A DNA stretch of 53,905 bases, filler included, from Sphacelaria rigidula (lineage: Eukaryota), in NCBI GenBank assembly GCA_964200075.2. It is 3 parts of 3 records of this genome, joined end to end, with 100 filler letters (N's around TTAATTAATTAA, not from the genome) between each part and the next. Parts side by side here need not be neighbours in the genome. Positions count along the whole stretch, not along the records: positions 36,008 to 53,905 come from CAXNAA020000969.1; 2 more parts are not named here. The stretch is one strand, 5' to 3'. The position numbers were made by a program, and so were the translations under genes. Position 1 is the first letter of the stretch. Every line of letters begins with the position of its first letter. The notes below the pieces were generated by a model. It ran no database searches. It saw only the letters and a list, made by a program, of their open reading frames with translations, and was not told where the DNA came from. Positions 15,839-53,905 of the stretch are shown piece after piece.

Positions 15839-16403
15839 ATTAGTGCAGCTTGCTGGTACTCGCTTCGAGCGATGCGCTGCACGAGAGATTAATATTTTTT
15901 GCGATCTCCAGCCTGCTCCTTCAAAATTACCAAAATGAATGCCCAACGGCAGGCGCGCCTCCTCCTCTTTTTAGGGTGTCTACGAGCACGTTTTACGCGC
16001 AACGGAGCAAGGCACAGACTGCAATGGCACCATGCAGATAACCTTTGAACAGTCTGTAGGGTTTGAAAATATTACGATGACCTTGCAGATCGGTGTCCTC
16101 GCAGTACAACGCTCAACGCTCGCACACAAGACACGAAACTGTTTGGTGTGAACCGGGGGTAGGTTTAGCTGCCAAATTCCCCTGGATATCTTAGAGAATA
16201 GTCATAATTCTTTGCAGAATAGGACCGGGGGAGTAGCCACGTATTTTGGGGTACCCACCACTGCGTGTTGGCGGCTCCGTCCTGCGCCGCACCCGGAGGT
16301 GAGAAGAGAGGAAGGTAGTAAAATATAGAGACACGTCCACGGGGACAGGTAGAGAAAGGACAAGATATATATATATATATATATATATATTTACTAGCTT
16401 CCC
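15839..16403. promoter_or_regulatory. Shared divergent promoter region between cyclin B and Psf2, with MSA-, CHR- and E2F-like motifs
   Basis: 565 bp separate the two ATGs. CAACGG at 15944-15949 and 16000-16005; TTCAAA/TTTGAA at 15920, 16044 and 16062; TTGGCGG at 16268. The motifs are short, so function is inferred. Confidence 0.5.
16365..16390. repeat. (AT)13 microsatellite just upstream of the Psf2 ATG
   Basis: Read directly from the sequence. Confidence 0.95.
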
Positions 16404-17905: not shown

Positions 17906-18005
17906 NNNNNNNNNNNNNNNNNNNNNNNNNNNNNNNNNNNNNNNNNNNNTTAATTAATTAANNNNNNNNNNNNNNNNNNNNNNNNNNNNNNNNNNNNNNN
18001 NNNNN
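17906..18005. other. Artificial contig spacer (N44-TTAATTAATTAA-N44)
   Basis: Exactly 100 nt with a six-frame stop linker at 17950-17961. Confidence 0.97.
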
Positions 18006-21600: not shown

Positions 21601-23725
21601 CCGGTCCAAGACGTCCTTGAGGTGAGACTGGATATGCTGCCACAGTCCGACGACCAGGGATTCCTTGTAGGGTGCGTCCGCCTCAAAAACTGGAGCCCCA
21701 GGATCGCTGTCCCGGAGATCCCGCAACCGGGCAGCATGCAAAAGTCGTACGAGATGCATATGATTGACTAACACACAGGTAAAAGAATCGAACACTAGAC
21801 TCAAGTACGACGTCAGGTGCTGCACATGCCTCGTCGAACCCTCATTTTTGCCTGCTCCATTGGGAGGAGCAACGCGGGCTTTTGCGTTATCCTCCTCCTG
21901 CCGTCCCGCACACGCACGCATATGCATGGCGCTGAGCGTCGTGACTTCACTCGACAACCTCTCAAGCAAATACCTCTCCACGTCGTCTAGGCACCGCAGT
22001 CGGCGCACGGCCTCCACCAACAGACGTAAGTATACACTGAATTCGCGTGATGGATCTTCCAACGCCTGTTCTTCGTCATCCCCAACATCTGTTACATCCA
22101 CTTCGAGGCCGGCCCACATGATTCCTACCGAGTCACCGTCCCCAGCACTTGACTCCGAGGCAGCATCTGCCGTAAAACCACCAAGTCCCGCGGGGCGATT
22201 TTGCGCAGACCCGGAATCTTCTGCGAAGATCCCACCAGCACCTCCGCGCTCCCTTCTCCTCCTATTCTTCGCTCCCCTCGTTTTGTCTAGATTTCGCACT
22301 CGCGAGGTTGCAGCGCGCAGGAACAGAACATCAGCGATTTCCTCCACCAGCATGTCTAGTATCCTGCCTTTTTGTGCCAGCATCTCGTCCCGTACATTCG
22401 AAACTGCGGGTACATCGACCAGCTCCGGACTGAAGATGTTTAGCAGAGACTCGTTCAGCAATCCCACAGCTCCAACAAATCGTTTTTGGCGAACAAGGCG
22501 CTCAAACTTCACAGGAGCATCCTGCGGAAAGAGAAAGACGAGTCAAAGCGAGGAAAGCTGGTGGGAATCAAATCCACCCACTGCTTCTCACCACTGTCAT
22601 CAAACACGGTGAGTACGACGGCCGCTACCTATCCATCGCCACTCCTCGCAAATCGCAAATGGGGTCTGCACAGGGGTGCGTGTGTTGCACATGCATAGCA
22701 AAAGCCTGAGTTCCATTGAAGAGGAGCAAAAAGCTCAAATTTCCTCACGTTTTGCACTCCTCACAGTACATCGTACACATAGTACACACAGCACACACAG
22801 TACACAGAGTACATAGTACATAGTACATTAATTCGTGCAAGATCGCACCGTCGCAGTGCCCCCGGTGGTCACAGTGGCACAGTACGTCATCGGCCAGCTC
22901 GGCTCCAGTAGTGACTTTGAATCTCGACAGAATGGCTTATGCTACTAGTTTCCGCCATGGAAAGGGTGAGAACGTGAGTGACAAAGACATTCGATGGACA
23001 TCGCTGGGCTGGGCGAGTACTGATGAGTCATCATCCACTGCTCGGTGATACTGGTAAACGACAAGGCGGGTAACGAGGGATGGATGAGTGTGATCGTCTG
23101 GGTATGTTGACACCACGGACTCGTCCCGAGCAAAAGGGGGGGGGTTAAATCATGACTAAAAACAACAACAGCCCAGAACGCGTGCTGGCCCTCAACATCC
23201 GAGACTCCGGGTAACCAAGACTCCGGGACTACAAGAGTAAGCGTTGAGATGGATCAATCCTCACAGCTGTACAAAACCGATCCAAGCAACACACAATACA
23301 CAATTTGCGTAACGGTAGTTCAGCCTGCGCAGCGGGGACTGACCTTGATCATGTTGAGTGCATTGAGCAGCCGCAGAACGAGGGAGTATTGTTGCTTTCG
23401 TTGCCATAACTCGCGTACGTCTGTCTGGCTCACTCCTGTTTGCAAAAGCTGTTTGCATTCCCGCAGTTGCTCCCTCAGAGTCCCCACATTCGTGCGCGTT
23501 TGATTGTAGTGTCTGGCCACACCGCCCATAGCTTGAACGGAACTGTTCAAGCGACCGTGGTGTTCCACGGTTATGCGTTCAACGACGTCATTGCAGACCG
23601 AAAGTTGCCGCTGAATATTCTTATGTAGCGGGTTGCCTGCCAAGTGCTCAAAATCTGGGCCACGACCGTCGTCCTTGTCTTGGTCAAGGCTGACGCTCAG
23701 AATCTCGATCACTTGGTTGAACGGC
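18635..23725 (-). CDS. SEC8: Exocyst complex component Sec8/EXOC4, partial; exons 23725-23344, 22521-21289, 21098-20913, 20044-19805, 18948-18869, 18729-18635; candidate first exon 26264-26200; 3' end unresolved or missing
   Basis: Sec8-type N-terminal coiled region (VVERITVEHHGRLNSSV...LRECKQLL...VRELWQRKQQYSLVLRLLNALNMIK|DAPVKFERLVRQKRFVGAVGLL...VSNVRDEMLAQKGRILDMLVEEIADVLFLR). Splice phases are consistent across six exons. Confidence 0.82.
21241..21270. repeat. Interrupted (CA)n microsatellite in a Sec8 intron
   Basis: cgcacacacgcacacacacgcacacacaca. Confidence 0.85.
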
Positions 23726-25488
23726 CTGAGCGACATTGGAATTGAAGATGAACGAACTAAACGTGAGGACAACAGCATCGCGAACGAGTAGTTGAGTCAG
23801 TGGCTGCGCTCAATTTGTGCTCACTGGTACGCACCGACTCTGACCAAGTAAAAGGGACCTTTCAAGACCGCATTGCTGTGATGCTCCCCTAAGCGCAACG
23901 CCTCACATTTCTCACTCGCCATATCCGTATAACAAAAGTGAGACAAGGCTTTTTGCAAAAACACCCCACTTAAAGAGATAGCACAATTATTGCAAAGCAG
24001 AGCACGAACCATGAACCGTTCAGCATAGCGATCTATTTGCGAGAACCTATGTACCTAGCATACAACATACAACGTACAACATACGTACGAGATCCGTCAG
24101 TTTACGACGGATATCTTAAACGTATACATCCTGCGACTTTCAAAAACCCTCCCCGGACCTTGGCAGGTACTGTTCATGCCCAGCCAGTCAAGAACGTTTT
24201 TTTTGCATAATAGTCATTCAAAACTTTTCATGTACAATATGTAGTTTCCCATCTGTGATTTGGTTTGACCGGTTGAGAGCGGAGGGCGGCAGGGGGCAAA
24301 GCGAAAGTCACCCTGTCGATCCCTGTTATTTACTATTTTTGTTGTTCGGCAGATATGATATCAGAGACTCATGTTTTGGGAATGTGCGCACCGCGCATGT
24401 AAACGACGTCGGACACTTCGATATGTTGAACGAAACGACATAATGAACATACTGGTGATGAGCATACTACATACATTAAATATTTCGTATGCGGTGCTGT
24501 GGTCACCGTATACTAATCGCACAGTTGTAATGCACCGAAAATACGTGTTGTGTAATACATAATCGTTTCATATTCCCCACCAACTTCGCGTTCCGCTCAA
24601 CCCCTCGACCACGAGGAGTTTGGGATCTTTTCTGAGCAGTTGTATACAATAATCAACACAAGCAAGCAATACATGCACACGACCCCTCTTCGAATTGCTT
24701 CATGTTGCCTCCCTGTATTTTCATTTTCAAATTTCTGATGTACCTCTATATATGTTCAACCGATGGAAGCTAATATCATTCGATTACCGTTCGAAGTACA
24801 ATAAAACAGTTGTCAAGTTCCGTTTCCTGCAAATCTTGTGCGACTGGTATTGCAGGGGATTTAGGATCTCGACGTCAACAGTATCGTATTCGTCACTAGC
24901 CACGAGTATCCAAGATCATCTGTACCGTGTCGTCTGTACACCCTACTGCATAGGGGTCAACTCATGATGCCAGTAAAGCTCCAATGATTAACCATTTGAC
25001 TGCCACCGTCGTCTCGGAACAGCTTCGCCATCTGATAGTCCCCAGGTATCCAGGGGTTTACAGAGGAGAAATTCCCGATTCATAGCTCAATGGAAAAGCT
25101 TTCGAAGTCAACCATGCGTGTCTTCACAAAAAAAAAGGGAGACGAGCAACGGGAAATCTCACTCGAAGCCACGAAAGAGGGGCTGTCTGGCCAACCGAAA
25201 GCAGCAAAATGAAGAGCAAATGATAATTCATAGCACGTCACCGACGTGATATTATTGCCTACGGGCGGCGGGCGGCGGGCAAAGGCATGTTCCATCATTT
25301 TTGGGGGACAGTTTGAAAATACGATAGTTTTCTTTGGAGCATCTATGGCACACGTGCACCCCGTAGCGTTGGGAAGAGAGGCGCTCCGAGCAAATCAGGG
25401 CAATGAACCACGGTTCGAATGAATCATTGCCGGTTCGAGTCACCAAATGCACGATTTTTTAGGGCTGATTGCTCGAGAGGCACTAGTT

Positions 25489-29043: not shown

Positions 29044-30381
29044 TCAAAAGTTTCACACGTCGGACAGATCAGCTCCCTATAGCTCGAGCTAGCTCTTTTT
29101 TAGCGTAGCTCCCTAGTGAACTATGAGAGCTACATGAGCTACGCATGTTTCTTCTGGGGTGAGCTATGAGAGCTGTATGAGCTACGCATGTTTACCGTAG
29201 GTGAGCTACCAACACGTACCTCATCAGCTCATATTTGTCCTGGGTGAGCTATGAGAGCTGCATGAGCTACGCATGTTTGCCCTGGATGAGCTACCAACTC
29301 GTAGCTCATTAACTCATATTCGCCCTGGGTGGGCTATGAAAGCTGCATGAGCTACACCTGTTTGCCCCGGATGAGCTATGGGAGCTGCATGAGCTACACA
29401 TGTTTGCCCTGGATGAGCTATGGGAGCTATGAGAGCTACGATTGCCTATCCCTTTGACCACGAGGGTAGGAGGTCTCTGAATCGGCATCATTCACACCCG
29501 AAAAATCAAGTGAATTATGCTGATTTATCAGATCGTCAACCCTCGCGGTCAAAGGGCTGAACCCTTGACGGCGAGCATAAGTCATCTATCTGTTGAATCG
29601 GCTCCACTTTCACTTGAAAAACGTATGCGTAACCAGATGGACTCGTACCCTCGCGGTCAACCGATCGAAAGAAATGAATCAGTCGATTACTGTAGACACT
29701 GAATACTAATACTTTTTTTAACCATCCGACCAAGCGAACGAGGATGTGTTAGGTTCAAACATTACAACAACCTAATGATATGTGGCACCATCCGTTCGAA
29801 CAAGAATGTTGCATCATAAGCGGCACGGGGTTGGCCAGCGGCGAGCTAGGCATATGACGTGAGTGAGCCACGACCATGTGTCCCTGGGGTGAGCTACCGG
29901 GCATAGCTCATCCGCTCATGTTGTCCCTGGGTGAGCTACAAGAGGAGCTGCGTGAGCTACACATGTTTGCCTTGGGTGAGCTATCGAGTGTAGCTCGCTC
30001 GCATATGTTTTCCGTGGGTGAGCTGTGAGAGCTACATGAGCTGTACATGTTTGCCCTGAGTGAGCTACCAACCCGTAGCTCATCGGCTCATATTCGTCCT
30101 GGGTGAGCTATGAGAGCTGCATGAGCTACGCATGTTTGCCCTGCGTGAGCTACCAACCCATAGCTCATCAACTCATATTCGCTCTGGGTGAGCTATGAGA
30201 GCTGCATGAACTACACATGTTTTTCCTCGGTGAGCTACCAACTCGTAGCTCACCAGCGCACGTTTACCTTGTGTTGAGCTATCGGACGTAACTCACATGA
30301 ACATGTTTGACTACAAGTGATCTACCGCCCGCAGATGAGCTAGCTCATGAGCTGTCCTACGTGTGAAAAGTTTGACCACTG
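29044..30381. mobile_element. Inverted-repeat-bounded non-autonomous element filled with a 42/85-bp AGCT-rich minisatellite
   Basis: tcaaaagtttcacacgtcggacagatc (29044-29070) is an imperfect inverse of gagctgtcctacgtgtgaaaagtttga (30349-30375), and the right end finishes CACTG|TA. Internal units resemble gggtgagctatgagagctgcatgagctacgcatgtttgccct. Confidence 0.65.
29450..29660. mobile_element. Two adjacent piggyBac-like MITEs (29450-29556, 29562-29660) inserted into the minisatellite
   Basis: Terminal inverted repeat ccctttgaccacgagggt / accctcgcggtcaaaggg. The second copy shares atctgttgaatcggc...tttcacttgaa with 2261-2358. Confidence 0.7.
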
Positions 30382-35907: not shown

Positions 35908-36007
35908 NNNNNNNNNNNNNNNNNNNNNNNNNNNNNNNNNNNNNNNNNNNNTTAATTAATTAANNNNNNNNNNNNNNNNNNNNNNNNNNNNNNNNNNNNN
36001 NNNNNNN
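35908..36007. other. Artificial contig spacer (N44-TTAATTAATTAA-N44)
   Basis: Exactly 100 nt with the six-frame stop linker at 35952-35963. Confidence 0.97.
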
Positions 36008-37421
36008 TCAGGCCGAAGAAATCGTGAATTTGGTGATTTTGAGTCGTGATGATTTGTCCTAACCGTGAAAGATTCCACGGCTGCATGCTCTGTGTTTCCC
36101 TACGCGGGATATGCGGCGTAATCGTCCCTGCCGTATCTTCACTGGTCTACTGCTATTATTTTGCCGTTTTTTACTCAAACCTCGGTTGTGAAGTTCTCCC
36201 CCGAGGGTGTAAGACCCCACGTGAAAATTGGCATACGAGTTGGGTATGATGCAGCCTGCATGTACACCAAGCGGGGGCACGTTTCGTCCGTGCGCGAATA
36301 TAAGGGCAGTGGTTGAAGATGTTTTCGTACTATTGACCATATGGCCTCCACACGGCCTCCCCGCGGCAGAAACTTCGTACACCCACCCACCCTTGTGACA
36401 CATTTTTGATGCAGCGGTGCACTGACATCCACACTATGAGCCCTTCAACGGCTGTAGCAAGGGCAAACAAACATCGATCTGTAATGGGACGCCTGCTGGA
36501 AAATGACAATCTCTGCAAAACCCAGTCACACACTGCCTGCAGAGGAGCTGAGGTGCGGAGGAACGCCCATACGTGCGCTGTGGGTGCTTTAACGCGCTGA
36601 AACTTTGGCCACATGCTCTGTGAAGCACAGCCAACAAGCCCATGTCATTTCATCTCCGCTTCCGTCGTGCAGCGCCGCAGCCGGGGGCGAAAAGGGTCAG
36701 ATTCTATTTTAATTCTGTCCCAAAACATTTTTTTCTTCACGCGCAAGACTGACTATGGGAAGTGTGAAGTGTGGCTTGTGTTGCGGGGTTTGCCGGCAAA
36801 TTTAATGAAGTACATCTTCATTTTGCCTCCCTCCCTCTACATGTACCTGTAGTAGACACCAGGTGACACACCAGTCCACGGTCGCGCGGGGCAGAGAACG
36901 TGTGTACACTTGCTAAAGTCGCCAGCACAAAAAGGGCTGGGTTGCAGACGGAAGGCAAAAATAATCAACGGCACAGCAGTTGGACCACGACGACTTTGAA
37001 CACGTCAATCTCATGATCTCTGATCTTGTTTGACAATCACGAAACGCAACTCGGTAAGAAGCCGCTGCTGCCTCTAGCGGTGAGACCATACCCTATTTTA
37101 TACTGGCGTGACTGTTCGCCTCGATACTCCGGACGAGATTCACCTTCTTTTTGGCAGACTTTGATGATTTCCGTCTCTCTCTTCTCCTCTCTTCCGAAGA
37201 AGAAGATGAGGAGGAAGATGGACTTCGGCTGCGATCACGCTTCCCCATAACAATGCAAGCGCCCTTTCAGCTCAAGGGTCATGACAACATAGTTGCTATG
37301 TTGACATAACCCTTTGCTTCAACATTTACACCGACTCGACTCCTCGTCGTGTTTTTCACCTTCACATTTGTCCAAAGATATTTTGATATCGGACCGGCGG
37401 TGCTGCAATTAGAATCCTATT

Positions 37422-39330
37422 CGTGTGTTGGCCTTCCTCCTGCGTGATATTGTACCCCGGCTGATGTATCTACATAATATACCGAAAGCTGGTGCAGACT
37501 GACGTCCAGGATATAGATGTGATGACGACACTACAACACGCACACAGTATACGAGTATCACTTTAAAGTGTTAACTGATCATATGATATGACAAATAGAT
37601 AATAATCATGATGAGTGTGTATGTGTTGCACAAGTCAGACGGATCAGCTCGTTACAGATCCGGGTCAGCTCATTTGGGGCATAGATCATGATCCGTCCGA
37701 GGTGAGCTGTCACCCGTGCACGTTTCTCCGATGCTGATCCGTAGGACTCGTTTGACCCGTACATGTTTGCCGAGCGATGAGCTGTACGACGCGGTTCACA
37801 CAAACACTTTCGTGTACAACTGATCTGCAGACCCGTGTCATCTGTACAACATTATTACATAGTTGTGATTTACATCACTCGGGTCAGGCAAGCGCAGTAG
37901 TAGCTTGTCGTCGACCCGTGCGATCCGAATCTCATGTACACCAAAAAAAGCTAACCCCGACCCGTAGAACCCGAATCTAGCGTGCAGGAAACCCTTTCCC
38001 GCATCCGTAAGATCCGGATCAAGTATGCAAGAAAAACAATATTCAGCTCCCTCACCTGTTCACGTGTATGGCCCGGGTGCAATGCATGTCTACAAGAAGT
38101 CCGGACGTTGGCTGTAGCAACCCTGGCATATGGAACATGAAGTAAGTATACTTTATTCCGAGTGGTTCCACGGTAGGGCTGCAAACTTTTCCCGAAGATG
38201 TGCACTGTCGGCGCATCCGAATGAAGTATACAATAAACATTATTCAGCTGTGCCAGCGGCTGTATGAACGACTGACTGTTTTCGTATATTCAGAGTGTAC
38301 TGTACAGTCATGCGCAGCGGGAAAAAAAAAAGCACAACTATATTATGCTCGATTGGTTGATCATGACGTTCGGCTGACGTCAGACGAAAATTTCCGCAGA
38401 AGAGTCATTGACGTGTACATTGCCGGCGTTGAAGCGCGGGTATCTCCTGCAAGCCTGCTCGATCATCAGCTGAATGACCTTTGCGACCCGAGTCATCCTA
38501 CGATAGGTGGGGGGGTATTTTGGGCCATTATTTGTTGCTCGAAATTTCGAGTCAGATCGTCGTTGAAAGCAGCAACAACGGTTGTTCGAACAAGCTTGAT
38601 GTGGATCAATAACGCTCATCCATACTGCCTGACACCGTTTGTAACCAAATACAAGCGCAACGCAAGTGTGGAAGGATGTCTGACACACTCATGAGCCTTT
38701 TCTTTCGTGCAACCAAATACCCCCCCCCTATCTTAAGATGACTCACCCGTTTAATCTCACCCGTTTAATCTATATACTTCTCTCGTGTGGTAACCTATAA
38801 ACCCGATTGCTCTGGACACATGGCGTGATGACTGACCTTTATGACCCGTGCGATTCGTGCATATCTGTCCGATGATGACCTGTATGGCCCGTGCGATACG
38901 TACATGTCTGTCTGATGATGATCTGTATGACCCGTGCGATCCGTACATGTCTGTCCGATGATGATCTGTATGACCCGTGTGATCCGTACATGATCTTTTT
39001 GGGCACACCTATCTATGTAATCCGAATCAGATATGTACATGAAACGTCAAGGAGAACCTGTGTATCCTTGTACCCCGTACAAGATACCTCCCTCTTGATC
39101 GATGAGATCCGGATCACAAGGACCGTTCCATAACTAGTTGAACTGTATGTATCACCCGAATCGGGTACACATGTTTCTTCACATTTGAGCTGTTGTATGA
39201 CCCGGATCCTATAGAAAGTGATCCGTCTGATGTGTGATGTGTTGTCGTCCCATCTATTCTGGATGCTGGTCTACATCTTTCGGTATATGTGGGCGCACCA
39301 GCCGGGGTCACACAGGATGAGTCAACTCAA
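37422..39330. mobile_element. ~1.9-kb element with long degenerate terminal inverted repeats and subterminal 43-bp minisatellite arrays
   Basis: 37438-37540 (cctgcgtga...ccccggctgatg...atataccgaaag...tccaggatatagatg) is the inverse of ~39235-39316. The unit cgatccgtacatgtctgtccgatgatgatctgtatgacccgtg repeats at ~38820-39000, with decayed units at ~37620-38030. Confidence 0.65.
38243..38640 (+). pseudogene. Possible decayed OTU-like cysteine protease fragment inside the element
   Basis: ASGCMND*LFSYIQSVL, a frameshift at an A-run, then FRRRVIDVYI...HQLNDLCDPSHPTIGGGVFWAI...NNAH. Resemblance to OTU motif order is by eye only. Confidence 0.2.
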
Positions 39331-39340
39331 TCAGATATTA

Positions 39341-40235
39341 CCGTAAAAGTGCGAGAGATGGCACCGGGTGCGACAGATTTTCTAAATGATTTTTTCTCGG
39401 ATTTTTTCCACACCCCGGTGCCGTCTCCCCGACCGGTGCCATCTCCCCGACCCCGGTGCCAAAATGCAATTCAATGATTCTTTCTGGATTTCAATGCACT
39501 CTGGTGCCATCTCTCCGACCGGTGCGATGCCCAAACAAATGCAAACCGTGGCCTACATACTTGAGCGTGTCGGGAGATGGGGACGAGGAAGGAGGCATTG
39601 AGTTGTGAAAGATCGCTAGTTGAGAATACAGAAGATCATCCGTGGAGAGCAGCGTTCTTTCGTTTGTGCGGTGGGCGCATCATTGGTATCTAGGTACCTT
39701 TGTTGCTGGCTCAAAGGGATCACGGCAACGGGGTCTGGAACGTAGTAGCTCGCACTAGCTTGCCGTACATCACCATAGCACAAAGGCCATCTGCTGTATA
39801 CCGGGAGGTGTTCAGTGCTAGTCTGGATATGGCGTGAACGTCAAAAATGTTGGCTGCTTCATTTGGGTGTGTACCGTACTTCGTTCGGACGGAATGGGCG
39901 ATTTTCCATGCGGATTAAATGAAAATAACAGAGATCATCCTGCTTGAACACTGACCATACACAAAGTAGTGTTGCCCCGACAACATGTTTACAACACTGC
40001 ACACGTGAAAGGTACCCATGTGTGTACATGCAGCAGCAGCAGCTCATGAGTGGCCCTGCTCCACCCGCGGAACCCTCACAGAGTTGGGTTCCGGGTCGGT
40101 AAGATCGCGCACCCCGGCGCGATCTGACCGATCCCGGTCCGAAAATACAAATAAACACTTTTTTGGCGCACCCCCACGCCAGCTCCCCGACCGGTGCCAT
40201 CTTCCCGACCGGTGCCATCTCTCGCACTTTTACGG
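39341..40235. mobile_element. 895-bp non-autonomous Tc1/mariner-superfamily (pogo/Tc2-like) element
   Basis: Perfect 27-bp terminal inverted repeats ccgtaaaagtgcgagagatggcaccgg (39341-39367; 40209-40235), flanked by TA on both sides, with internal repeats of ccggtgccatctccccga. Confidence 0.88.
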
Positions 40236-41529
40236 TATGTATGCTGCATTCTTGCTGCAATACCCACCGGCCGAAATATATATGCATGCATCGCTGAGTT
40301 ATCTTCTACACAATTCTCCCGGTCAGAATATGCACCGCTGAGCTTGCGCTGAGTGATCTTTTATAACTCACTCAACCAGAATAAGCACTCTATAACTCAC
40401 CACACCAGATTATACTTACCGCTGAGTTATCCTCTGCCTTGTGTTGGACGGAACAGGGTACACTGCGAGGCGCACATGTTTGCAGGGGTGCCGATCGGTC
40501 CTAAATCGCGCTGTTTGTTTTTCGCGCAAGTTGGCGTAGTACATGCTCTACAGCTGTACGGACTGTGGGCACCTGATCTTTGTGTCGGGATTGAATTTTG
40601 AGTGGTGTAGGCCTAGCACGGACGGACAGCTCCATCTTGCGCGTTTACCTGTGCCTACTCTTGGGCTGAAATAGGTTGTGATGTACGATACCCACGTTCC
40701 TGTATATAGTTCGTCTGTCTTCTGCCCTTCACTACCAACGACCAACGGGAACTAACAACCATTAATAGGTTCTGGAAGCCTGTGATGCTCGTCCCGTGCG
40801 CAGCAAAGGGTATGGTATATGTGTCATATCCTTTGGTGCGCAGCTTACTGTGATTTCCCCATCGCAGCCAGGAGTATCATGGCGGCAACGCTCCAACTCA
40901 TCGTGCCACAAGATGTGCTACGCTAACCAGTGAGTGTGTCGATGCGTTTTCATGTAAAAGCGCCAACTCCATCGCTGGCGGTTGGTCTATATGTGGCAAC
41001 AAGTAGTGGGCTGACCGACTGTGAGATGTATGTTCAATTTTTACGGAGATACGAAAAGCGGCACGTACGCCAATTGGATTTTCGAGAAAATACCCTGTCG
41101 TGCCATCGTCGTGCTCAAAATGTCCCATATCCAGCATCTCTGCAATAACTGTCAACACGCTTTTTGCGTTACAGCCGTGTGTTACAAGTGTTGGTATCGG
41201 TAAAGAAGCGCCAGGGAGCACCTCCAACCATATATTTCACGCTTCTTACATCCTGGCTAGGTCAACGTGCGGCGATTTACGGGTCAAGCGGGGTGTTTGT
41301 CGGGTGTACCGTCATTTTTAAATTAGGAATTGTTGCTACCAGAACTATACCGGGACCGGTGCAAATTGGAATTTTTCATTGAATTTTCTAGAAGTGACGT
41401 TGGCTTATTCGAATTCAACGACCCGTAGTTGAAATTTACCCTACACGGGATCAGCACAGGACAGGATAGTGTCACCACCGAGACCATACTGGATTGTGTC
41501 TACATCTACAACCGACACGCATCCATTTG

Positions 41530-43523
41530 ATGACCACCCAACGCCGGACCTTCCTCGTGGCTCGGGATCAAGCGCAGTTAAACAACTGCGCTCTCCTTCA
41601 GTTGGTAAGGTTTCGTTTTGATCCCGTGAACAGTCTGTCGGGTAGCCTAGGGAGCCAGCGCAAGCTCCTTGGTATTCTCGAGAAGAGAATCAGATGACGG
41701 GATACAAGCCACCATTCTATACGAGTGCTATAGGTGCAGGGATAGCGAACTTTACGATAGTATTGGTGGAGAAAAGCTTCATAGGCAGCCCTCATGAGGC
41801 CAAAAAGCCGTGGAAGCTGTAGCCAAGTGGCATATTGTTTTTAGAAGATACGTACGAAATGCATGAGCGGAGCTTTTGCGGGATTAGCGACTGTTCATGA
41901 GTCAACTTGTTGTTGCTGTTCGAAGGCTGACGCAAATCCGTCTAGTCGGTCGTCGGAGCGCCTGAATTTCTCTCTGACATCCACGGCCTCTTAGCTTGAG
42001 TTTAGCGACGTGTGCAACACCGATCGCCTTCAGATTATTGCTTTCAATTTTTTCTCTCTATCCCGTTTTCCCGATGTTGAGTCCCATGTGTTCCCATCTT
42101 GCAGGGACTGTAGACGTCGGTCGCCGCGTTTTGCATCGGGTGTCGGTGTAGTATTCATTTAAATTTAGTACAGACAGAATTTTCGGATTTCGAGAGGATC
42201 GGCGTGTTCGGCGCATTCAACTTGTTCGGTTAACCGTTAGACCGCGATGCAGGTACTCATAGCCCATCTGGATTACCGATACTTTCAAGTGAAACTGATG
42301 CCGATTCAGCAGATGGACTACGCTCGCAGTCAAACAGAGTAGATTGCCATCAGTCATCTCGAAATTGTCCTGGAGTAGGGCTGCGTTGTGGGAAAATGTG
42401 CTAGGCAATGACCCACCATGTAGCTGTACAGTACACTTGTTTAAGCCTCACGACGAGAGTAGGCCATCTGTTGAACATGCATCAGTTCCACTTGAAATAA
42501 TTGAAGGTTTGCATGATGCAGATGGACTACCCTCGCGGTCTACAAAAGCACTCTTGGATAAGATTTACAACAAATCTGCTGCCGCGGCGGTGAAAAGGGG
42601 GAAAGGTGAAAATATATCTCCGTGTGGCGACCACCGTGGGTAAAATAAGCGGAAAAATCGGATTTGCGACTTAGTTCGTGCTCAAGTAGTGGAAAGATCT
42701 CAGCACGAGCGAAAATGCTGACTGTTTCCTTTGGCCTGTTTGAAATACGAGTACTGTCTGCTATCCTCCATGTACTGACTGTACTGTGCTGTGAAATATC
42801 GAGTTAAACGGCGCTCATCCGCGTAAACCAACCACCGTGCGTGCCTGTTGTTTGTTTCCATTTTTATTCCCTCCCGCGCAACAGGATCTGCGAGCTCTTG
42901 CAGGCTGTGTGGTGGCGAAGAACAAGCTGCACATCAACTACGTTTTCGGATGCATGGGCCAGCGGACATTCTTGGTTAACCTCAAAAACAAGGCAACAGG
43001 ACGACTGGTCGAATCCGTTGTCAAGGCCGCGCTTGGTTCGGAGGTCGAAATATCCACCGTAGAGACTGTTGTGCCTGGAGAGAAATTCGCGCCCGGTCTG
43101 CGAAAATCGGCTGGCAGGCGTTCTCCCCTGGATGAAGCACCAATTGAAGCCACGGTCGAACGCCACGCGGCGAAAGTGTTTGGCGAGTCTGGTGGGACAG
43201 CCCTGTTGCTGGGAATAACCGGTGTCGTGAAGACCTACTTGTATGACGGCAGGGGCAGACCCGGCCTTGCCCTCACATCAACATCAACATCAACATCAAC
43301 ATCAATATCAACAGCAGCGACAACTTCGGAACAGCAACATCAACAGGAAAAGCAGCCGCGGCAACCTTCACCACAGCAGCAACTACACGGCAAATACGCA
43401 GAGGAAAGCGAGGGGGGCGATGATGAGGACACCTACGCGTATGCTGATGCTGAGATGGAGGAATGGGATTCATCGTCCCAATCAAGCGACGTTCTTGCAC
43501 CACCCGGAAGCCCGCCATACCAG
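41530..43523 (+). CDS. Uncharacterised protein module, copy 1 (exons 41530-41604, 42885-43523); either its own gene or the 5' part of the HSF-like gene
   Basis: MTTQRRTFLV...NNCALLQL|DLRAL...INYVFGCMG...FLVNLKNKATGRL is clearly paralogous to 45550-46470. Canonical GTAAGG donor and polypyrimidine acceptor in phase 0; followed by an S/T/Q-rich and acidic tail. Confidence 0.75.
42234..42541. mobile_element. Two oppositely oriented piggyBac-like MITEs (~42234-42339, ~42445-42541) in intron 1 of the module-1 gene
   Basis: Both are preceded by TTAA. The first contains the reverse complement of catctgttgaatcggcatcaatttcacttgaa, and the second ends cagatggactaccctcgcggtc. Confidence 0.65.
43275..43310 (+). 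repeat. Coding hexamer repeat (ACATCA)5 plus one variant unit, encoding TSTSTSTSTSIS
   Basis: Read directly from the sequence. Confidence 0.9.
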
Positions 43524-43797
43524 GTGCGAGGAGGAACTTGACTCGGAACAACTCACTTGGCACAACCCTTGAGTCCAACAGTACAGTAGAACGCGCTGTT
43601 TTACTGAATTAATTTGCCCAGTCTATCCATTACAGGGAGGATTGACGTTTCCTTCCTACGATGTATATGTCTAACAGTCCGTCTGTCGTTTGTTGTTGCC
43701 CTCAGCTGTGGTCTGTAAGGGGCCGTATGTCTTCGCCAGTAACCGGGTGGTATTGTGTGACGCGTAAAGCGTACTACAGTATTTTACACTCGCCTGG

Positions 43798-43997
43798 GGC
43801 CGTGTCTTGTAAAAACGTAAAAGCAAATTGGTGTCGAAAACGTGCGGTGGAATCGAATTCGCTCTCATCTGATACGTCCACGTCATTTTTTTGCCTTAAA
43901 TGGTTGAGAACATGAACGTGGTGGATATCAGGTATGAGCAAATTCGATCTCACCGCACGTTTTCGACGTCATAATAATTTTTTTGGAAGACACGACC
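43798..43997. mobile_element. 200-bp foldback MITE-like element (GGCCGTGTC...GACACGACC)
   Basis: gtcgaaaacgtgcggtggaatcgaatt pairs with aattcgatctcaccgcacgttttcgac. Same layout as 766-954. Confidence 0.65.
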
Positions 43998-45549
43998 TGA
44001 CAGCAGTTATTTCCACAATCGAAAGTGTTTTGTCAGGAAAGGACAAGGAACTCAAAGAACGTTCCGAGAGCATCGATCAATCCCCGAGTTGACCATCTAT
44101 CATAAGCTGGAAAGGAAGTAGTAGCTGAACCACCTGGAGGGAAGTGAAGACAGTTCCAGCATTAGCTACTTCATTTCATTTTTGTGGTAGCTTGGTTGAG
44201 TCTTTGCACCGCGCAACACAGGCCAGTGCTTCCTCCGTGGTTGGGCTGTTATTCCACATTTAAGTAAAAAGAAATAAGCTCAAATCTGCAGACATGGGAA
44301 ATGACGGGGAACAAGCCAGATGGAGAACATTGACTGCTGAACCGCACGATCACCTGGTACTGAACCGCGCAACTAGCGTAGATAAACAGTTGCTCACGGG
44401 CAGTGTACATGCAGCGCCACTCGGCCAACGTCTCTGGAGACAACGATGGGAGGTTCACCTCCAATTATTTCATGGAGTTGGTGTGATGTGTACCCGGATG
44501 CACGATGCTCACTCTAGGTCGCATCTCTCGTCAGGCAAGCAGGTGCTATCAATATAATAGTACAATGTAATAGTACGAAATACTAGTTTTCTTTACTCGA
44601 CACAAGCAATGCTAGAGGATAGCCGTTAGGCCGTTCAAGTGGACATATCGTCAAAAGGCACATACATTCGAGTCATTGAAGATGTGTCTCCAGTGGGTGC
44701 TTGTGTGTCTTGCGTATTGTACCGCACTTCCTTGGGTATCATACCTCATCCCGACCGACCACACCCAACAATCTAATTCATGTTGTCACCAGTTTTGAAA
44801 TCTGTTTTTTGTTGTGAAAGTGTGTGCTCTTGTGTCTCTCAAGTGTAGAAGAAGAAGATTGGCGGCGTAACTTGCACCAAGGTGTACAGCAATAGCGCCC
44901 CCCCCCTCCCTCCCAGTGTCATTCTCTCCGGAGAAATGTCAACGGGGAAAACTTGCAGTGCCAAAAAATGTCGCGCATGGGGGTACCTCGGCATCTTTCC
45001 AAAGGTACAAATTCCACCTCCTCTTGCACGCTAATCCTGGCGGAGAAGTGTGACTTGTATCCATTTTCTTTCGTTGGGGGTGTCATCTACCGAATTCCAC
45101 GGTACAATCCATCACTGCCATGTTTTCTGGATTGTTGACGTCGTATCGAAGACACAAATAAACAATTGTTCGTATAATTGTTCATGTGAACCACATCCCA
45201 CGCACACCCTCCGGAGTCACACGCCCGCGTTCTCCCTGCAAAGCATTAACATGTTATTGCTATAATAGTCTCAAGAGACGCAGTCGAAGCAGCGATCATC
45301 CCCACATACAGCAAGTGCAATTTGTGTTTCGTCGCGAATTTGCACGCTGGCACTCAGCAATTGGCTGGTCTATGAGTCACTAGAACCACAAGAAACGGTC
45401 TTCATAGCACACCGCCTCCTTACCCGCACGTCATTTATTATCGCCGACAAGCCCACTCATCACTCACGCCTCTGCCTTATGACATACAGCAACATCAAGG
45501 CCAGCAACAGCAGAATCTGTCACCCAGAAAAGCTGCAAGTGATCGCCTC

Positions 45550-48500
45550 ATGGAAACGCAACGAAGGACCTTCGCCGTAGTGCCGGCCGAAGCCGAGGGC
45601 CAGCCAAACAATCAGGAGCTGCTTGAACAGGTGCTAGAGTTATTTTATGCTTGTCAACACAGTACATGACGTCCGTGGATAATTCCTGCACCTGGGCGGG
45701 AAAAGTAAACAAAAAATCGTCATCGGTGACTTTTTTCAGTCAGTAGTGCCTTGGCGCGGCTTTCGGCACAACGGAAGATTGTCCACGAACAACCTCCCGT
45801 TTCTTGCTTTCTGAAATGGCAGTATGAGTACATGCCCTTTATCTCGTCATGTGAAGACGTTTCACTGTCATCTCCCAAGAAGATAGTAGCATTCTTTTTT
45901 GAGTATTTTCTTGTGTGTGGAGCTCATTCTCTACGAAATGTTTTCACCTCGAGAGCTTGAAATTCATGTCGATGAATGTATCGCTGTCATGATTGGAATT
46001 GAATACACGTTGGCATCGCCGCGCTCAAATCTTGCCTGACTGCGTTACTGAACTGAACTGCTTCACCTGTATCGATGGCCGAAATATCGTTCGTTCCAGG
46101 TGTTGAGTAAGCTACGGGAGTGCGAAGTAGTCGGGAAGAGAATCCGTATCAACTACTTGTTCGGGTGCCTTGGTGAAACACGATTTCTAGTAAATCTGAA
46201 GTGCAAAGCCACGGGACGACTCGCCGACTCCATAGTCAAAAACGCACTTGGCCCCCGGTGGGAGGCGACGCCCTTCGAAACGCAACAGAGAGGGGAGAAA
46301 TTCGTACCTGGCCGGAGCTTCAGAAACCGCGCAACGACCAGCGGCGAAAACAAACGCAAAAGGGGCGAAGCCACGATAGAGCGAGAAGCGGTGCGAGCGT
46401 TCGGAGCCTCCAGCGGAATTGCTCTTTTGCTAGCAGCCGGTGGCAAAGTCGAGGCGTATCGGTATGATGGCGTGGTGGGTCTGGTGCTGGGCGACAGCGG
46501 AGACCAACAGGAGTATGTTGCTGCGGGCGCGGCCTTAGATGACGGCGACGTGGCGACGGCAGCGGCGGCGGCAGCGGCAGCTGGAGGAGGAGAATCTGGT
46601 TCGACTCACACAGCAATGGAAACGCTTCACTCCAAGGTATTATCCCCCCAGCTCATGAGTCCTGTGCAAAGCGTCTTGCTTTCAGTGGCGCCCAGCGGAT
46701 TTCTTCCATGTCCCGTTTTCACCAAGCACGGGCTCGGCGTGGTGGACAAAGTTTTGCCTCTTGTATCTGGTGCCGTACATATCTAGACTGCCATGTGTGG
46801 CACAACATAGTCTTGACCTTATCATTCGGGATGCGTTGTATGGTGCTGACCCTGATGTCAGTTCTCGTTGTGGCGTGGACGCTGATTTCACGATCCTGTA
46901 CCCGAAAACCCGATTGTCCTGTCTGTACTCGTACTATTGCTTCTACCTTCTACTTTTGAACATTCGGACATCAGAAGCAGTCGCCACACCCACCGATCAC
47001 CATCCCTCGCGATATGAGCTGCGACATGAGCGAAGACAGTGACCACGCCGGCGGCGGCGAAACAGCCAACGCTAGCGATTCGGAGCACCCAGAGAGAAGC
47101 GGAGATGGCGAGGCAACAACACCTATGGATTCCGAAAACGCGGACGGAGTGATCGACGTGGGCCGTCGTTCGCTGTGGGCATCGTCAAGTACGAACTCCT
47201 TCGATGCGCGGCGGGGACAGCTGCCATTGTCTGCGCGGGAGGAGCCATACGCGAGGTCGAACAGTCAGCAGAAAACTCCACCTGCTGCTGCTTCGTTGCT
47301 GTTGGCACGTACCTCGAGAGCTGAATGCATGGTCGAAGGCCAGAGAGAGAAACAGACACGGAGCGAACAAGAGGTCGAACAGGAGACGCAAGCCGGCGCG
47401 CCGTACGACGCTTGGGAAGATTCGGAAGAGGAACAGATGGCTTGGCGGTTTGGGCTGACAAGGGATAAACATGGCCGCGCCGGCACTATGGGGGCGGAAG
47501 GCGGGTGCAGCGAAGGACAGGATGGAAGAGCTAGGCATGAGGCACAGGAGCCCTCCGAGGTGCTACACACGCGCGCTCGGGCGTGGGCTTTTTTAAGCTT
47601 GAGCATCGATTCGCCCCAGTCGCCGCAGCGGCAACAGTCTCTGTCGGAGAGTAAGGTTGCGATGATTGCGGGACTGGCGGGATATTCTCGAACTGCTGAT
47701 GGGGATCTGGTGGCCTGCCAAGACCGTGTCGGCAAGAGTGACAATACTGGCAGTACCGGAAGAGAGTCTTGGAGAGTCGTGAATACGGAAGGCCCAACTC
47801 GACGTTTGTCGCAGGGCATGCCAAGGAGTAAAGGCCTCGTCGACCGATGGCGAAAGGTGAGCTTGTGGGGTTGTCATGTAGAGTGAAAGTACTAGTAGCG
47901 GTCAGGCTCGTGCTATTATTCCCCGTCTGTGTCGGAGGAATACATTCGGAGGAATAACAAATCGTCGCGCATCTGCTTCTGCGGAAGATCTAGCCAGGAT
48001 CGAGACTGGACGTTTGTGTTCCCCTATGCTGTAGTTGTTGGCAAATACTCGGACTTTGACATCGAGAAGCAACACATCCCCAAGTCTCCCGCTCAAATCA
48101 ATTTCCACTACCCGACTGACTCTGTCATATGATCTTGTGCTCCAATTTTTTCCACTCTTGAAACATTGGCGCTTGCGCAAGCAGGACAACGCTCTACCAA
48201 GTAGAAAACAGAAAAGCGCGTCGTTCGTGGTGGACCTTTACAACATCCTGCAACAGGAAGACTCGGCCGTGATAAGCTGGTTGGGTGCACCGGTTCTGGC
48301 CACGGGGCTCTCGGAAGATGCGTTCTTCATTCGAGATCCCAAGCGGTTTTGCATGGACATCATGCCGCGGTATTTCAGCCGACGTGAGTACCCTCGTAAA
48401 CGCCTTTTGTACACGAAGCCATGCTGCAGGGGCTGGTCTTTCCTGATTTTATTTCGTCACTTTTATTATTATATATCCTTTATCATCATTATTTCTTCCA

Positions 48501-51402
48501 TTATGGGTAGGTCAAGAGTGGGTTCGATTTTACCCGTTGCGCCAACGTCGCCCATCACTCTGTTTTCGCTGCTCTCTTTTGTTACCACATACATGGAATC
48601 AGTTCACCATTATACCCCTCGAGAATACTCGGAGCGCTGCGACGGCGACCAGGCTACAGCCACGGAGCGCATGCTGTGGGTCTTCGAGATGGAGCTGTGC
48701 TTGCATGGCTTTCGCAAGGCAGTGAATCATTCCGGCTATTCGCACCCATTGTTTAGGAATGGAAAGCCCGATCTGCTGTCCCGAATTCATCGATCGATTG
48801 CGTTCGAGGGTGATGCTGGTATCCGAAGCCCATTTGGGGCACCCTGGAGTAGGGCAACACCTTGCAGGGACTACGGAGATGACTCACCGCCCAAGATAGA
48901 GCCAAAATCTGGCAGGGCGCGGCGGGGCCAGCACGTCATTTTCAAAATGGGTGAAGGGCTGGGGAATAGCCATATGTGGGTGTTGGAGCGGCCTTCGGCA
49001 ACTGAGGCGGCGGAGTTTGTCAGGCAAAGGTGACTCAATATCCACGCGCCTTGGGTGATGGTTTCGTTTCGTTGTGCGTTCAATATGTCCATACCTACCC
49101 TTTTTCACATTGTCTGGTCATGCAGTTGATACTCACACCACACTAGACTTGACATCTGTTGCATCGGAGTAAGGTAGACGAGGCCCATGTACTCTTAATA
49201 TCATATATCGTACGTCCTTCAATCTTTGAAGCGGGAACAGCAAATGGCTGCACCCGACACGTACGAGCAGATGGCCACACATTGCTCCGTTCGGTTGGTC
49301 GTATGCGGAGCATCACCACTCACACTCGCAAAGTTCAGCTGCCACGGTTGTATTTAATCAAACCTGTGTCGTTGAACGTGTTTGCCCCTCCGCAGGTGTA
49401 CCCTTGACGAAGTAGTGGCCATCCTATCGGCACCGCCGGCAGTTGGGGGAGGCTGTAAGGACGCCGGAACTTGCGGGGACAATCCTCTGCCGCACGCCCC
49501 ATGGTGGTACCGAGACCTACGGCCGGACCGACACGATGAGAAACGCCCCCGCACTTCCAGAGTAACGCCAGATGCATCGCCTGCCCGCGGCGCATCGTCC
49601 CCTCCTTCACAAGGACGTCGAGCGCATGCGGCGGGGAAGTGTGAACTGGACTTGTTCGATCGCATGCGGTCCTACAACGTATTCGATTCCCCGTCCATCG
49701 ACGACTTTCGGTCGTCTCTGCAAAAGGTGAGACTGTAAGACTGCTGAAGGAGTTGGGATTTACGGGCTTGTATCGCCTGCTTCACTGGAAAAAAGAGCCA
49801 GGGGTTGGTCTGGGATTTCCGCTATTCCTAGACAGGTCGTAGCGTCGACCGGTAACAGTTCCATCTTGGTTGTGTGTGTTCTCGTTCGATCTCAGGATTT
49901 CCGTTGAGAGTAAGAGGGCGCCGTCGATTGTGCTACAATACACGCACCGACACTTTCGGGTTGTACTTTTCCCATGAACACAGGTGCTCCAACACTTGGG
50001 CTTCCAACTCGAATGTCAGGAAGATAAATTCGGGCGACAGGAGCCGTCGGCGCCTCTACCGCCCCCTGCGATATTTCACACTGCGGCGGGAATGGTTTAT
50101 GGAAGAGCGTCTCCAGCCATGCGATGGGGCGGCACGTCTGCCATGTCCTTTGAAGTGAGCGAACATCCTTGCGATCGAAGTCGCCGATTTATGAAATTTG
50201 TTGTGCATCGAGGACGAGCGACTGGCAATATTTGCCTGCAATCGGACATCGCTGGGGCATGCGTAAGACACGAATGTTTTTCACCATGTATTCAACCGAG
50301 ATTTTTTTTTTGCCGACGCCTTGTGGCTCGGGTTGTGCTGCTGAACACCGACAGAGTTCCCCCCCCCCCTCGCCCCGTCACCGAACACGTATCATTAACC
50401 CTCCCTCCCCTGCCGCGGCTCCACCGATCTGCATCCTTATCAAATTGACTCAACCAGGACTGCTCCACCGATTTCCACGAGAGCCTTCGGCAGCTACCGT
50501 TCAGCTGGCGCTCGTTTTTGTCGAGCATTGTTTCTTGCCTGGGTGCTGTTGCAGATCCCTCTACGAGCTACGCTCAAGGCGACGCTGACGGAAGGCAACG
50601 TGTGTTCGGAAGAGGTGGGGTGTCAATGGCCCAGCTAGAGAGCAGGCATAGGATGGGTGTGGTGGATGTGGGGAACACGCCAGGAGGATCTCGAAAACGA
50701 AAGGTGGGTTGGGCATGATTCAGTACGCGCACGGTAGAGAGAGAGAAACTGCATATTGCAAGCGGTTGCTTCGGTATGTATGCCGGCCTGTACCGAATCT
50801 GGCTCCTGTCAGAATATCTTGCGCGTGTACGCTGTCGTTGCAAAGCCGTAGTGGCTGAGAAATGGATCAGTCATCAGTTGAAAATAAAGCCAGCGCTGTA
50901 TTGAGTCCACGAGATTCAGCCAGGGTTGTGGGCGCGGAGTTGCTGCGAGCCAAGGGCTCGAGATAACAGGTTCCTGTACGGGCCATCCTCCGGAAGTGCT
51001 ACTTTTCTCTCTCTGAACCGTGCTCGCAACGACAGCCAAACCCTGGCTGTGCCACCTCGCCTCTCGCCTTTCTCAACTCCCCTCCCCCCCTCCCTGTGTC
51101 TCCAACTACCACGCGTTGACACATGCTACCACTACACCACCGATGGGCCATAACAACAACAACGTCAACAAAAACAGTGGAACGCCGAGCGGATAGAGAG
51201 CCGAGCATCACTGGAGATCCTGCAGTCTGTCATGAGAGAGACGCTGGGTCTTGATATCACCAGGTCACTTTTGGGAGGTGATGAGGACGATGAGGACAAT
51301 GATGATGAAGAGGCCATGGCGGCAGCTGCGGCAACCCGTGCCATCGGGTCGATGTGTAGAGCACAGTACCAGTCACTTTGGGCAGATACATGTATTGGGT
51401 AA
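45550..51402 (+). CDS. Multi-exon protein with uncharacterised module copy 2 and a divergent HSF-type DNA-binding domain; exons 45550(or 45490)-45630, 46100-46636, ~46975-47856, 48185-48383, 48603-49029, 49396-49726, 49984-50154, 50458-50703, 51178-51402
   Basis: HSF DBD signature FVVDLYNILQQEDSAVISW...AFFIRDPKRFCMDIMPRYF...GFRK...YSHPLFRNGKPDLLSRIHR. All eight introns are GT-AG and phase-consistent to a TAA at 51400-51402. Confidence 0.75.
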
Positions 51403-53905
51403 CCCGAAAGAACCTGGGTGTCGACTCAAGCGTTTAACAAGCGCCACAAAACGCTCAGTTTTGAAGACTAGAACAAAAAAACAGTAGGTTGAATTATACA
51501 AGATACAGTACCAGTATATATGGTGAAAGTTTTCTTGGTGTGACACCTGTTGTTCGATTACATTATTAGGTGTATTTTTTCAGATATTACAAGGGATGTT
51601 GAATACCCTTCTTTGCCTCGCGGCTGCTCTTGTATTCAATTCGTGCCGGAAAGTTAGTGTAGAATGTAGGAGCAGCACACCGTGTTTTCAGGTGAAACAA
51701 ACAAATGTGCAAGTACGCGTGTGTGATCATTGATGGAGGAATAACAGATACAAGCTGTAGAGCGAAGGCGAGTGTTTGTGTGTTTGTATCAATCTGCTTG
51801 TTGAGTCAGGCCGGGGTGAAAATTCATGTACTGTACTTCCTGTATATGGTATATGTGGAGGTGCTACAGTACGACGATAATTCGAAAAGCGTGAAATGGG
51901 CGTGCGTACATGAAATGCGGAGTATGGACAGGGGTGAAAGAGAGCACCCCAGCCATTGTTGCAACACTATGGCAGTGTTGACACGGATGTTGGTGTCATT
52001 GTCGTCGCTTCTGTTGTTTCTTGCTGATGACGAATGATTTGTTTTGACGGTACCCACAATGTTTTCCACATGGTCCATTATCCCCTCTGGGTGTATTCGA
52101 CCTCGTCATCGTACCGGTGCTGGCGTACGAATAATTTAGCGTGTGTTCATGTTTTTTTTGTTGATGTTATTTTTATAGTGTGCGTTGTGTCCCCCTTCTT
52201 GTGTTGGTTCACCATTTTGTTTGGTGAGGCGTGTCTTTCGTGTGAACTAGAATGTAGTGATACCCCCAGTTTTGCCACCGTGCAGTCAGCGGAGGGTGAG
52301 GAACATGAAGTAAGGTAGTGTTAATGTGGCGGAGGGAGAGGAGAGGGTATATTCATTTTCTAGTGCGACATCATATAGCGCAGTTGATTTTTCTGGTTCT
52401 GTAGATGTGGACACGAACGGCTGTGCGAAGAGACGCGAGCATCTGTAATAGTTCGAAGAATATACGTGTGCATGCTGGGTCAACCCCTGATGAAGAGGAG
52501 GCGAGGTGTGTAAGTGCGTAAGTGTTTGTGTAGGGACGATATGTATGTCGAACCCTGGTTCGTTCTACTACCCTTGTACCTATTCCAGGGTTTCTGTAAT
52601 ATGCGTTCAGCACAGTACGGCGATTCCCGTCGACCGGCTGTCGTTTGCGATTTCTTTTACGATCGACGATGCTCGAGTACGAAGCACAATTTTGGCCATA
52701 CGCACGACGCACGAGCCTTCGTACCACTGGTGTCGCGCACACGACGGCCTCATCGTCCTTATTGGCCTTATTGGCCTCATTGCATGCGCTGCGTGGAGGC
52801 GTGGAGGCGTGGAGGGGTGAGGTTGATCGACCTGTTTTGTCGATATTAAGGAGGGAAAAAATATTTTGGATGTATTAATGACGTGTACATGTAGTCTTTA
52901 CGAAAACGATTCCGTGTAAATGTCGAATCGAGTGATCCGTAGAGCTGCGAAAGTGGAGCCTTGGCGTGTGAGAATGGATCCGTACCTGATGCAGGGGTGC
53001 AGACGCGGACAGGGAGTTTCATTTCACGATATGAACCTGTTTGTGCTACTCTTTAGAGTGCTTGGAACTTGTGAAGTACCCAGTTGCAGTGCGTGTTTTG
53101 TTTTCATGGATCGGTACTAACGAATCCAGATACTGTTGTACTGGAGCTATGCTATGCTGTAGAGGATGCGGCTGTAGGTAGCCAAACCCGGTGAGAGACG
53201 ACGACTGTCTATGGTGCTGACACGTTCGGTCGCAAATGTGTATTGTGTGTGTTGTCAGGAGTGAGTGATGATCGGGAAGAGTGGGAGCGTGTGGCGTGAT
53301 GACTACCCTTGCGGTGGCGCGCTCCTTGTGAGTTCGAGCGTTTGAAGTATCAAATTAATAGATAGTGGATGTTGTGCTGTAATCTCCTGTGCCAGAAGTC
53401 TCGGGTAAAATCGGCGGGGACTGTACGCGATTAGGAAAATCCCTGCGAACCAAAAGAGCCCCCGTAGATGCGGTAAGGCATCATGCTTCGCGGTGATTCT
53501 CACCTGCTGGACCCGCCTCCTCTTACCCTTGGCGAAATCATGTCTTGTTAATATATACATACTATTGTATACAGTAGTTAGCGTCTGATATTTTCAAGAT
53601 CCGTAGTTTTTGAATTTTATACTGAAAATAGAGAGAAGTCGTGATTCCGCCGCTTTTTTTCATCATGTTTCAGCCAACATCGCGTGCATGCCAGCAAGGA
53701 TATCTCAGCGTATAATGCTCCCCCTGCGTAAAGAAAGATATCGTGATGACCGCTGTCAAGTGGAGAAGCCGAACATCCGCGTATAACAGGGTCAACTACC
53801 GTGTGTGGTGAACACGGTGGGTGGGAAGAACCCCCACAAATCAGGTGGTACGCTGCGGACTTGAACATGACGGCTGTCAGAAAACACATCGAAGGCGTTG
53901 CATGT

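Follow-up and report, generated by a model that had tools for sequence, protein, structure and literature searches.

A duplicated, apparently undescribed domain spliced to an HSF-like domain in one gene of Sphacelaria rigidula

Introduction

Do two copies of an unnamed domain, lying upstream of an HSF-like domain in the genome of Sphacelaria rigidula, belong to one protein, and may they have taken over the choice of its targets? Complex multicellularity evolved independently in brown algae. Brown-algal families of transcription regulators appear fairly stable in domain-profile surveys (bioRxiv 10.1101/2024.02.19.579948); such surveys are blind to any domain that has no profile. The locus is found on the third of the three N-joined pieces (36008-53905, CAXNAA020000969.1) of the window, i.e. 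the whole stretch of 53,905 nucleotides that was analysed (assembly GCA_964200075.2). A sequence-only reading had placed at 41530..46470 a two-exon module duplicated ahead of an HSF-like domain, leaving the choice between two tandem genes and a single protein. That interval does hold both modules, here A and B, whereas the gene spans 40814 to past 52400.

Gene structure and transcripts

Contigs were examined from four of the eight sequencing runs that contain the stretch; none of these is recorded as RNA, and the RNA-like status of three was deduced from spliced joints. Ten GT-AG joints are identical in all the RNA-like runs, which come from two studies, and do not occur in the fourth, DNA-like run: 40929 to 42885, 43523 to 45490, 45630 to 46100, 46636 to 46975, 47856 to 48185, 48383 to 48603, 49029 to 49396, 49726 to 49984, 50154 to 50458 and 50703 to 51178. 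In two runs a single contig (5952 and 6109 nt) covers all exons, and the coding exons form a single open frame with 51402 as the last base of its stop codon. Module A, linker, module B, linker, HSF domain and C-terminal region are therefore parts of one spliced gene.

All features lie on the plus strand. The 5' exon of the assembled transcripts (40814..40929), defined by the first joint, contains on an ATG scan one out-of-frame uORF of 64 aa, overlapping the main ORF, and two in-frame uORFs of 35 and 15 aa; the latter end two codons before the junction, and no coding sequence of the exon runs in frame into the main ORF. The next exon, 42885..43523, holds the second part of module A (domain end near 43250) and a low-complexity linker, whose end is encoded at 45490..45630 together with the exon-1 part of module B. 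The remainder of module B (domain end near 46490) and another linker are found at 46100..46636, with the same exon boundaries in a relative, and a basic KRKR cluster is present in a variable loop of this module. A long low-complexity linker exon follows (46975..47856), poorly conserved apart from two short motifs at its 3' end. The HSF-like domain, at about 48224-48800, occupies exons 48185-48383 and 48603-49029; four C-terminal coding exons with conserved blocks (49396-49726, 49984-50154, 50458-50703 and 51178-51402) include a WGGTSAMSF motif at 50125 and an RKRK cluster at 50692. The 3' UTR, 51403..52400, is covered by contig pieces at 51176-52400 in the three RNA-like runs and continues past the examined stretch.

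Two tandem genes, a module-only one next to another with module and HSF domain, would agree with the aligned Met that begins each copy, with the stop that the unspliced 42885-43523 frame would meet at 43541, and with the single module of most relatives. However, the joint 43523 to 45490, with 141 letters on its short side, is spliced in frame in all three RNA-like runs, so that the aligned Met of module B (45550) is internal to the protein; the NCBI model P0003 has the same joint, and the relative P0004 is a single ORF of 1138 aa with the order module, module, linker, HSF, C-terminal blocks. The two-gene reading is thus contradicted as the main structure and is extremely improbable, while the in-phase acceptor at 45489, already pointed out as allowing one protein, is indeed used in RNA. 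P0003 is 100% identical over its matched part and starts at 42954, where the isoform supported by RNA has its first in-frame ATG; this opens an ORF of 1242 aa without the first 48 residues of module A. The annotation is corrected accordingly: the public model, of 355 aa, covers only part of a protein of 1242-1290 aa.

The skipped first exon of module A

The exon that encodes the first 25 of these residues, 41530..41604 (strand beta1 and the start of helix alpha1), is intact and conserved, but it is missing from the assembled transcripts of all three RNA-like runs: the contig with the first joint passes directly from 40929 to 42885, and depth is zero in the bin 41202-41602. Since rare isoforms are dropped from contigs, the exon may still see occasional use. 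It is kept in the spliced ORF of P0004, where the first 50 aa are 66% identical, and the Phe that it contributes to beta1 is conserved across the family, in 22 of the 23 rows reaching that far.

A perfect three-unit heat shock element (HSE), GAAnnTTCnnGAA, is located at 41381..41393 on the plus strand, 137 nt upstream of the ATG of the skipped exon. The window holds two HSE matches against 0.49 expected, a number reached by 11 of 100 shuffles; for a 500-nt stretch of the same composition the chance is 0.5%, to be read knowing that the element was noticed post hoc. It is a guess, and a weak one, that this is a candidate element of an alternative promoter with an HSF-inducible first exon; rare inclusion as a cassette exon, or recent loss, are other possible readings. 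From the common mRNA, which starts at the upstream uORF-bearing exon, a protein would be made in which module B alone is intact; for both modules to be complete, the skipped exon would have to be included, and the HSE-containing promoter might perhaps provide it.

Duplication and distribution of the module

Modules A and B, compared as translated 41530-41604 plus 42885-43523 against 45490-45630 plus 46100-46636, align end to end with 74 of 147 residues identical and a score of 310, the best of 500 shuffles reaching 59. The motifs listed by the sequence-only reading all recur in both copies, and the introns, 41605-42884 and 45631-46099, are both GT-AG and phase 0 at the equivalent position. Between the copies, identity is 61, 66 and 33% at codon positions 1, 2 and 3, and pN amounts to 0.35 while pS, at 0.80, is saturated (147 codons); these values indicate that the duplication is old and that both copies were under purifying selection, much as had been supposed. 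With the family HMM, no third copy is found in the six frames of the window.

A two-sequence profile run against 1.84 billion representatives gave 43 matches at E <= 0.001, 40 of which carry the module motifs; P0026, P0032 and P0034 were dropped as false, being SprB-repeat proteins, and a further search added P0049. In these relatives the module usually occurs once, at the N-terminus or close to it, and what follows is mostly of low complexity; many of them are exon-sized ORFs only. One bears Arm repeats and one LRRs, and the complete fusion of two modules with an HSF domain is seen in two species only. Between the window gene and P0004 the modules are 56-76% identical per 50-residue block and the linkers 6-36%, with 6-26% per 50-aa block over residues 401-700, in the long linker. 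P0005, an unspliced ORF, is identical to P0004 over 281-430 and departs exactly at the splice positions, which indicates that the module B intron is conserved.

In a tree of 40 rows, from which self-matches, P0005, the SprB rows and four short ones were left out, module A falls in one clade with P0008, P0004-A, P0007 and P0009 (98/93). Module B falls in another with P0004-B, P0006 and P0011 (100/98), which joins seven single-module rows (98/92). These groupings place the A/B split before these lineages, and the tree does not show A and B as each other's nearest kin.

The early statement that the module has no named domain holds in Pfam, where six window pieces give no match within the modules at E 1, except two sub-threshold low-complexity ones, and 44 proteins give none at E 0.01. 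No NCBIfam match was found for seven proteins; PHROGs gave only single-member matches in 3 of 40 rows, three of the five matches falling on the LRR-bearing row; PDB sequences gave one hit, at E 1.8, and none with the profile; and ESM Atlas gave no usable hit for two queries, which speaks neither for absence nor for novelty. A ubiquitin-L40e match to residues 2-86 of P0004 (E 0.026) was rejected, since the predicted model is not a beta-grasp. Scanned with the close-clade alignment, which reaches close relatives only, viral, metagenome and prokaryote-genome contigs yielded 58, 54 and 53 pattern matches, none of them confirmed as a relative; on this basis and on one named match, the family may be limited to brown algae. 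In a viral fold search, EsV-1-231 appears at E 0.083. No description of the domain or of its architecture was found in the accessible text of the literature searched, and the orthogroup and composite-gene supplements of Phaeoexplorer could include the family. Thus, the domain family and its combination with an HSF appear undescribed, and the fold and the HSF part are of known kinds.

Predicted fold and function of the module

The module is predicted to adopt an RRM/palm-type fold. Its 90-residue core is matched just as well by ACT, CheA P2, CcmK and metal-binding domains as by RRMs; this, the fusion of the family also to Arm and LRR domains, and a pseudo-HSF surface, W-V-F-E-x-E-L, conserved between the window gene and P0004, would suit ACT/ferredoxin-like domains for protein interaction or small ligands, in a DNA-blind HSF decoy or scaffold titrating cofactors or canonical HSFs. 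The fold matches that reach helix alpha3 and beyond, however, are mostly Thg1, origin-binding and Rep domains, and the charge of the module is uniformly positive, in 40 of 40 cores (mean +0.047 per residue; pI above 9 in 31), whereas outside the module it is +0.001 per residue and positive in 9 of 19 proteins. A role of this kind is rather unlikely.

Conserved polar residues are concentrated in the loop between beta3 and alpha2 and in the helix (N57, K59, K61, T63, K72), and also in two motifs, GEKF and TIERE. If the latter two, as a G-E-K-F-x-P-G loop and a T-I-E-R-E-A helix, made an active site of their own on a Thg1-like palm, the module would be an enzyme. Acidic residues define palm enzymes, one where strand 1 ends and a pair in the hairpin between strands 2 and 3 (PMC2904730); none of 23 rows has an acidic residue at columns 9-11, at the end of strand 1, and the beta2-beta3 hairpin shows no conserved acidic pair, with at most 5 of 39 rows acidic per column. 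Judged by these columns, the module is without palm catalytic residues, and an enzyme is most unlikely. Rep proteins, in turn, need HUH or HUQ on strand beta3 and YxxK on helix alpha3 (PMC10288648). H-x-H on beta3 occurs in none of 40 cores, His in at most two at any beta3 column, and a Tyr of any kind in the alpha3 region (the YxxK test) in three.

Binding of RNA by RRM-like modules, in a protein acting post-transcriptionally or coupling RNA to the HSF-derived region, is a further reading. RRMs are marked by exposed aromatic residues in RNP1 and RNP2; in the family alignment Phe is conserved on beta1 and beta3. Pfam RRM is matched neither by the window pieces nor by any of 44 proteins at E 0.01, and the module has about 60 further conserved residues, and a conserved loop, a helix and three strands that are missing from RRMs; RNA binding is held to be improbable. 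In RepB and papillomavirus E1, dsDNA is read by a helix and by loops that lie at a distance from the catalytic site (PMC9943647), and by analogy their DNA-reading helix may correspond to alpha2 of the module. Nucleic-acid binding by the modules is, on balance, probable, with DNA a likelier ligand than RNA.

The HSF-like domain

The HSF-like domain, recognised before any search, matches PF00447 (E 1e-7) with 32.9 bits in the unspliced ORF of the window and 29.2 bits in P0004, against a curated cut-off of 22; the PDB match of this part to HSF2 reaches only E 0.4. Its recognition helix (helix 3, 48677-48718, plus strand) is altered and is preceded by an insertion. Aligned by eye and anchored on the FRK end, the helix reads W-V-F-E-M-E-L-C in the window, W-V-F-E-A-E-L-R in P0004 and S-S-F-Q-R-Q-L-N in the kelp SjHSF-08: the invariant Arg (HSF1 Arg71 / HSF2 Arg63) is replaced by Met and Ala, and the conserved Asn (HSF1 Asn74) by Cys and Arg, respectively, with the hydrophobic positions retained in both proteins. 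The Arg makes a base-specific contact and the Asn is its neighbour (PMC8379338), and R-Q-L is retained in 16 of 16 kelp HSFs (PMC12899012). With these replacements, HSE binding has very probably been lost. An HSF domain without its key DNA-reading residue suggests that recognition of targets may have passed to the new domains.

Proposed role and significance

The gene may have arisen by the joining of two single-domain family members to a duplicate of an SjHSF-08-type HSF, whose domain would have kept its hydrophobic core and ceased to read GAA repeats. The modules, basic and non-catalytic, of RRM/palm type, would attach to nucleic acid, dsDNA being the likeliest, by way of the conserved basic loop and of the helix following strand beta3, in the manner of origin-binding domains, and would bring the HSF-derived C-terminal region to new targets. 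A nuclear location is suggested by the KRKR and RKRK clusters, at residues 370 and 1213. Transfer of targeting to the modules is about evenly balanced against its opposite, and the explanation as a whole, a nuclear two-module protein with a degenerate HSF domain and targeting by the modules, stands at even chances too. A bolder version, improbable as it stands, would have the module be a catalytically dead Rep or origin-binding domain, captured from a virus or HUH transposon and turned into a brown-algal family of sequence-specific DNA-binding domains; the tandem pair would have replaced DNA reading by the HSF, and the HSE would switch between one- and two-module isoforms, placing the gene downstream of canonical HSFs.

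If the module binds DNA, its about 40 unannotated representatives are a missed family of regulators, and in this gene nature has retargeted a stress factor by exchanging its DNA-binding domain; a module that binds proteins only would still make a new domain family, though one of modest interest.

Comparison with known systems

Among known HSFs, SjHSF-08 of Saccharina japonica is similar in motifs around helix 2 and at the C-terminal end of the HSF-type domain, in a C-terminal WGGTSAMSFE motif, listed as AHA-like, and in total length (1325 vs 1290 aa) (PMC12899012). Given the shared motifs, compared by eye, its clade is the likely parent of the HSF part. Unlike SjHSF-08, the window protein has other residues in place of the helix 3 Arg and Asn, as well as an insertion ahead of this helix. 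In all 16 kelp HSFs, over the first 400 residues compared, the HSF domain lies within that stretch with no module before it, whereas here it lies about 770 residues in, behind two new modules; HR-A/B is not clear in the kelp HSFs as described in the same source, whose HMM search could have missed a degenerate orthologue.

Thg1 and Thg1-like palm polymerases are 6-12% identical to the module, have 220-260 aa against about 150 and possess the catalytic acids that it is without. Replitron transposons are reported in brown algae (PMC10288648); from these, compared by their published motif definition, and from the Rep HUH endonucleases of CRESS viruses, the module differs in being without HUH/HUQ and YxxK. 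The origin-binding domains of polyomavirus large T, papillomavirus E1 and plasmid RepB are 8-17% identical to it, which gives no sequence-level link, and no SF3 helicase accompanies the module: P0004 has only PF00447, and there is no helicase among the best five family matches listed per protein. Compared with these domains, the module has in addition a conserved GEKFxPG loop and C-terminal strands and, differently from the viral ones, it is encoded by a cellular, intron-containing gene.

Surroundings of the module-HSF gene

Spacers of N occupy positions 17906-18005 and 35908-36007; the window consists of three separate pieces, so the genes left of 36008 need not lie next to the module-HSF gene. 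Exon-like ORFs are found at 4933-7789 on the plus strand and at 12760-15970 and 21271-23796 on the minus strand; judging by eye, we take them to resemble, in this order, a LipB-type lipoyl transferase, a B-type cyclin and exocyst Sec8.

Gene structure and intronic repeats

The 5' exon of the module-HSF gene (40814-40929) carries stacked uORFs, and its first position, 40814, is a contig end in all three RNA-like sequencing runs; this shared end hints weakly at a transcript start or a branch point. A scan of the window revealed a perfect three-unit heat shock element at 41381-41393, upstream of the skipped first exon of module A; a second perfect three-unit element lies at 30439. The NCBI model of the gene, P0003, is a partial protein of 355 aa that ends within module B, and the HSF part is missing from it.

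Short high-copy repeats are present in introns of the gene at 42260-42541 and 43828-43967, where DNA depth reaches about 16,700 and 24,900, respectively, versus 65; the latter repeat is palindromic and MITE-like. Diverged repeat arrays and an inverted repeat of 190 bases also occur in the window, at 29116-30309, 38826-38992 and 765-955.

Module family

Among the proteins sharing the module, a distant clade (100/99) comprises P0027, P0029, P0031, P0033, P0039, P0042, P0044-P0046 and P0049. Inspected by eye, their ORFs run unbroken through beta1, the strand encoded by exon 1 in the Sphacelaria gene; these members appear to be devoid of the phase-0 module intron, which points to a gain or loss of this intron during the evolution of the family. 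Two further members, P0040 and P0047, carry Arm repeats or LRRs behind the module.
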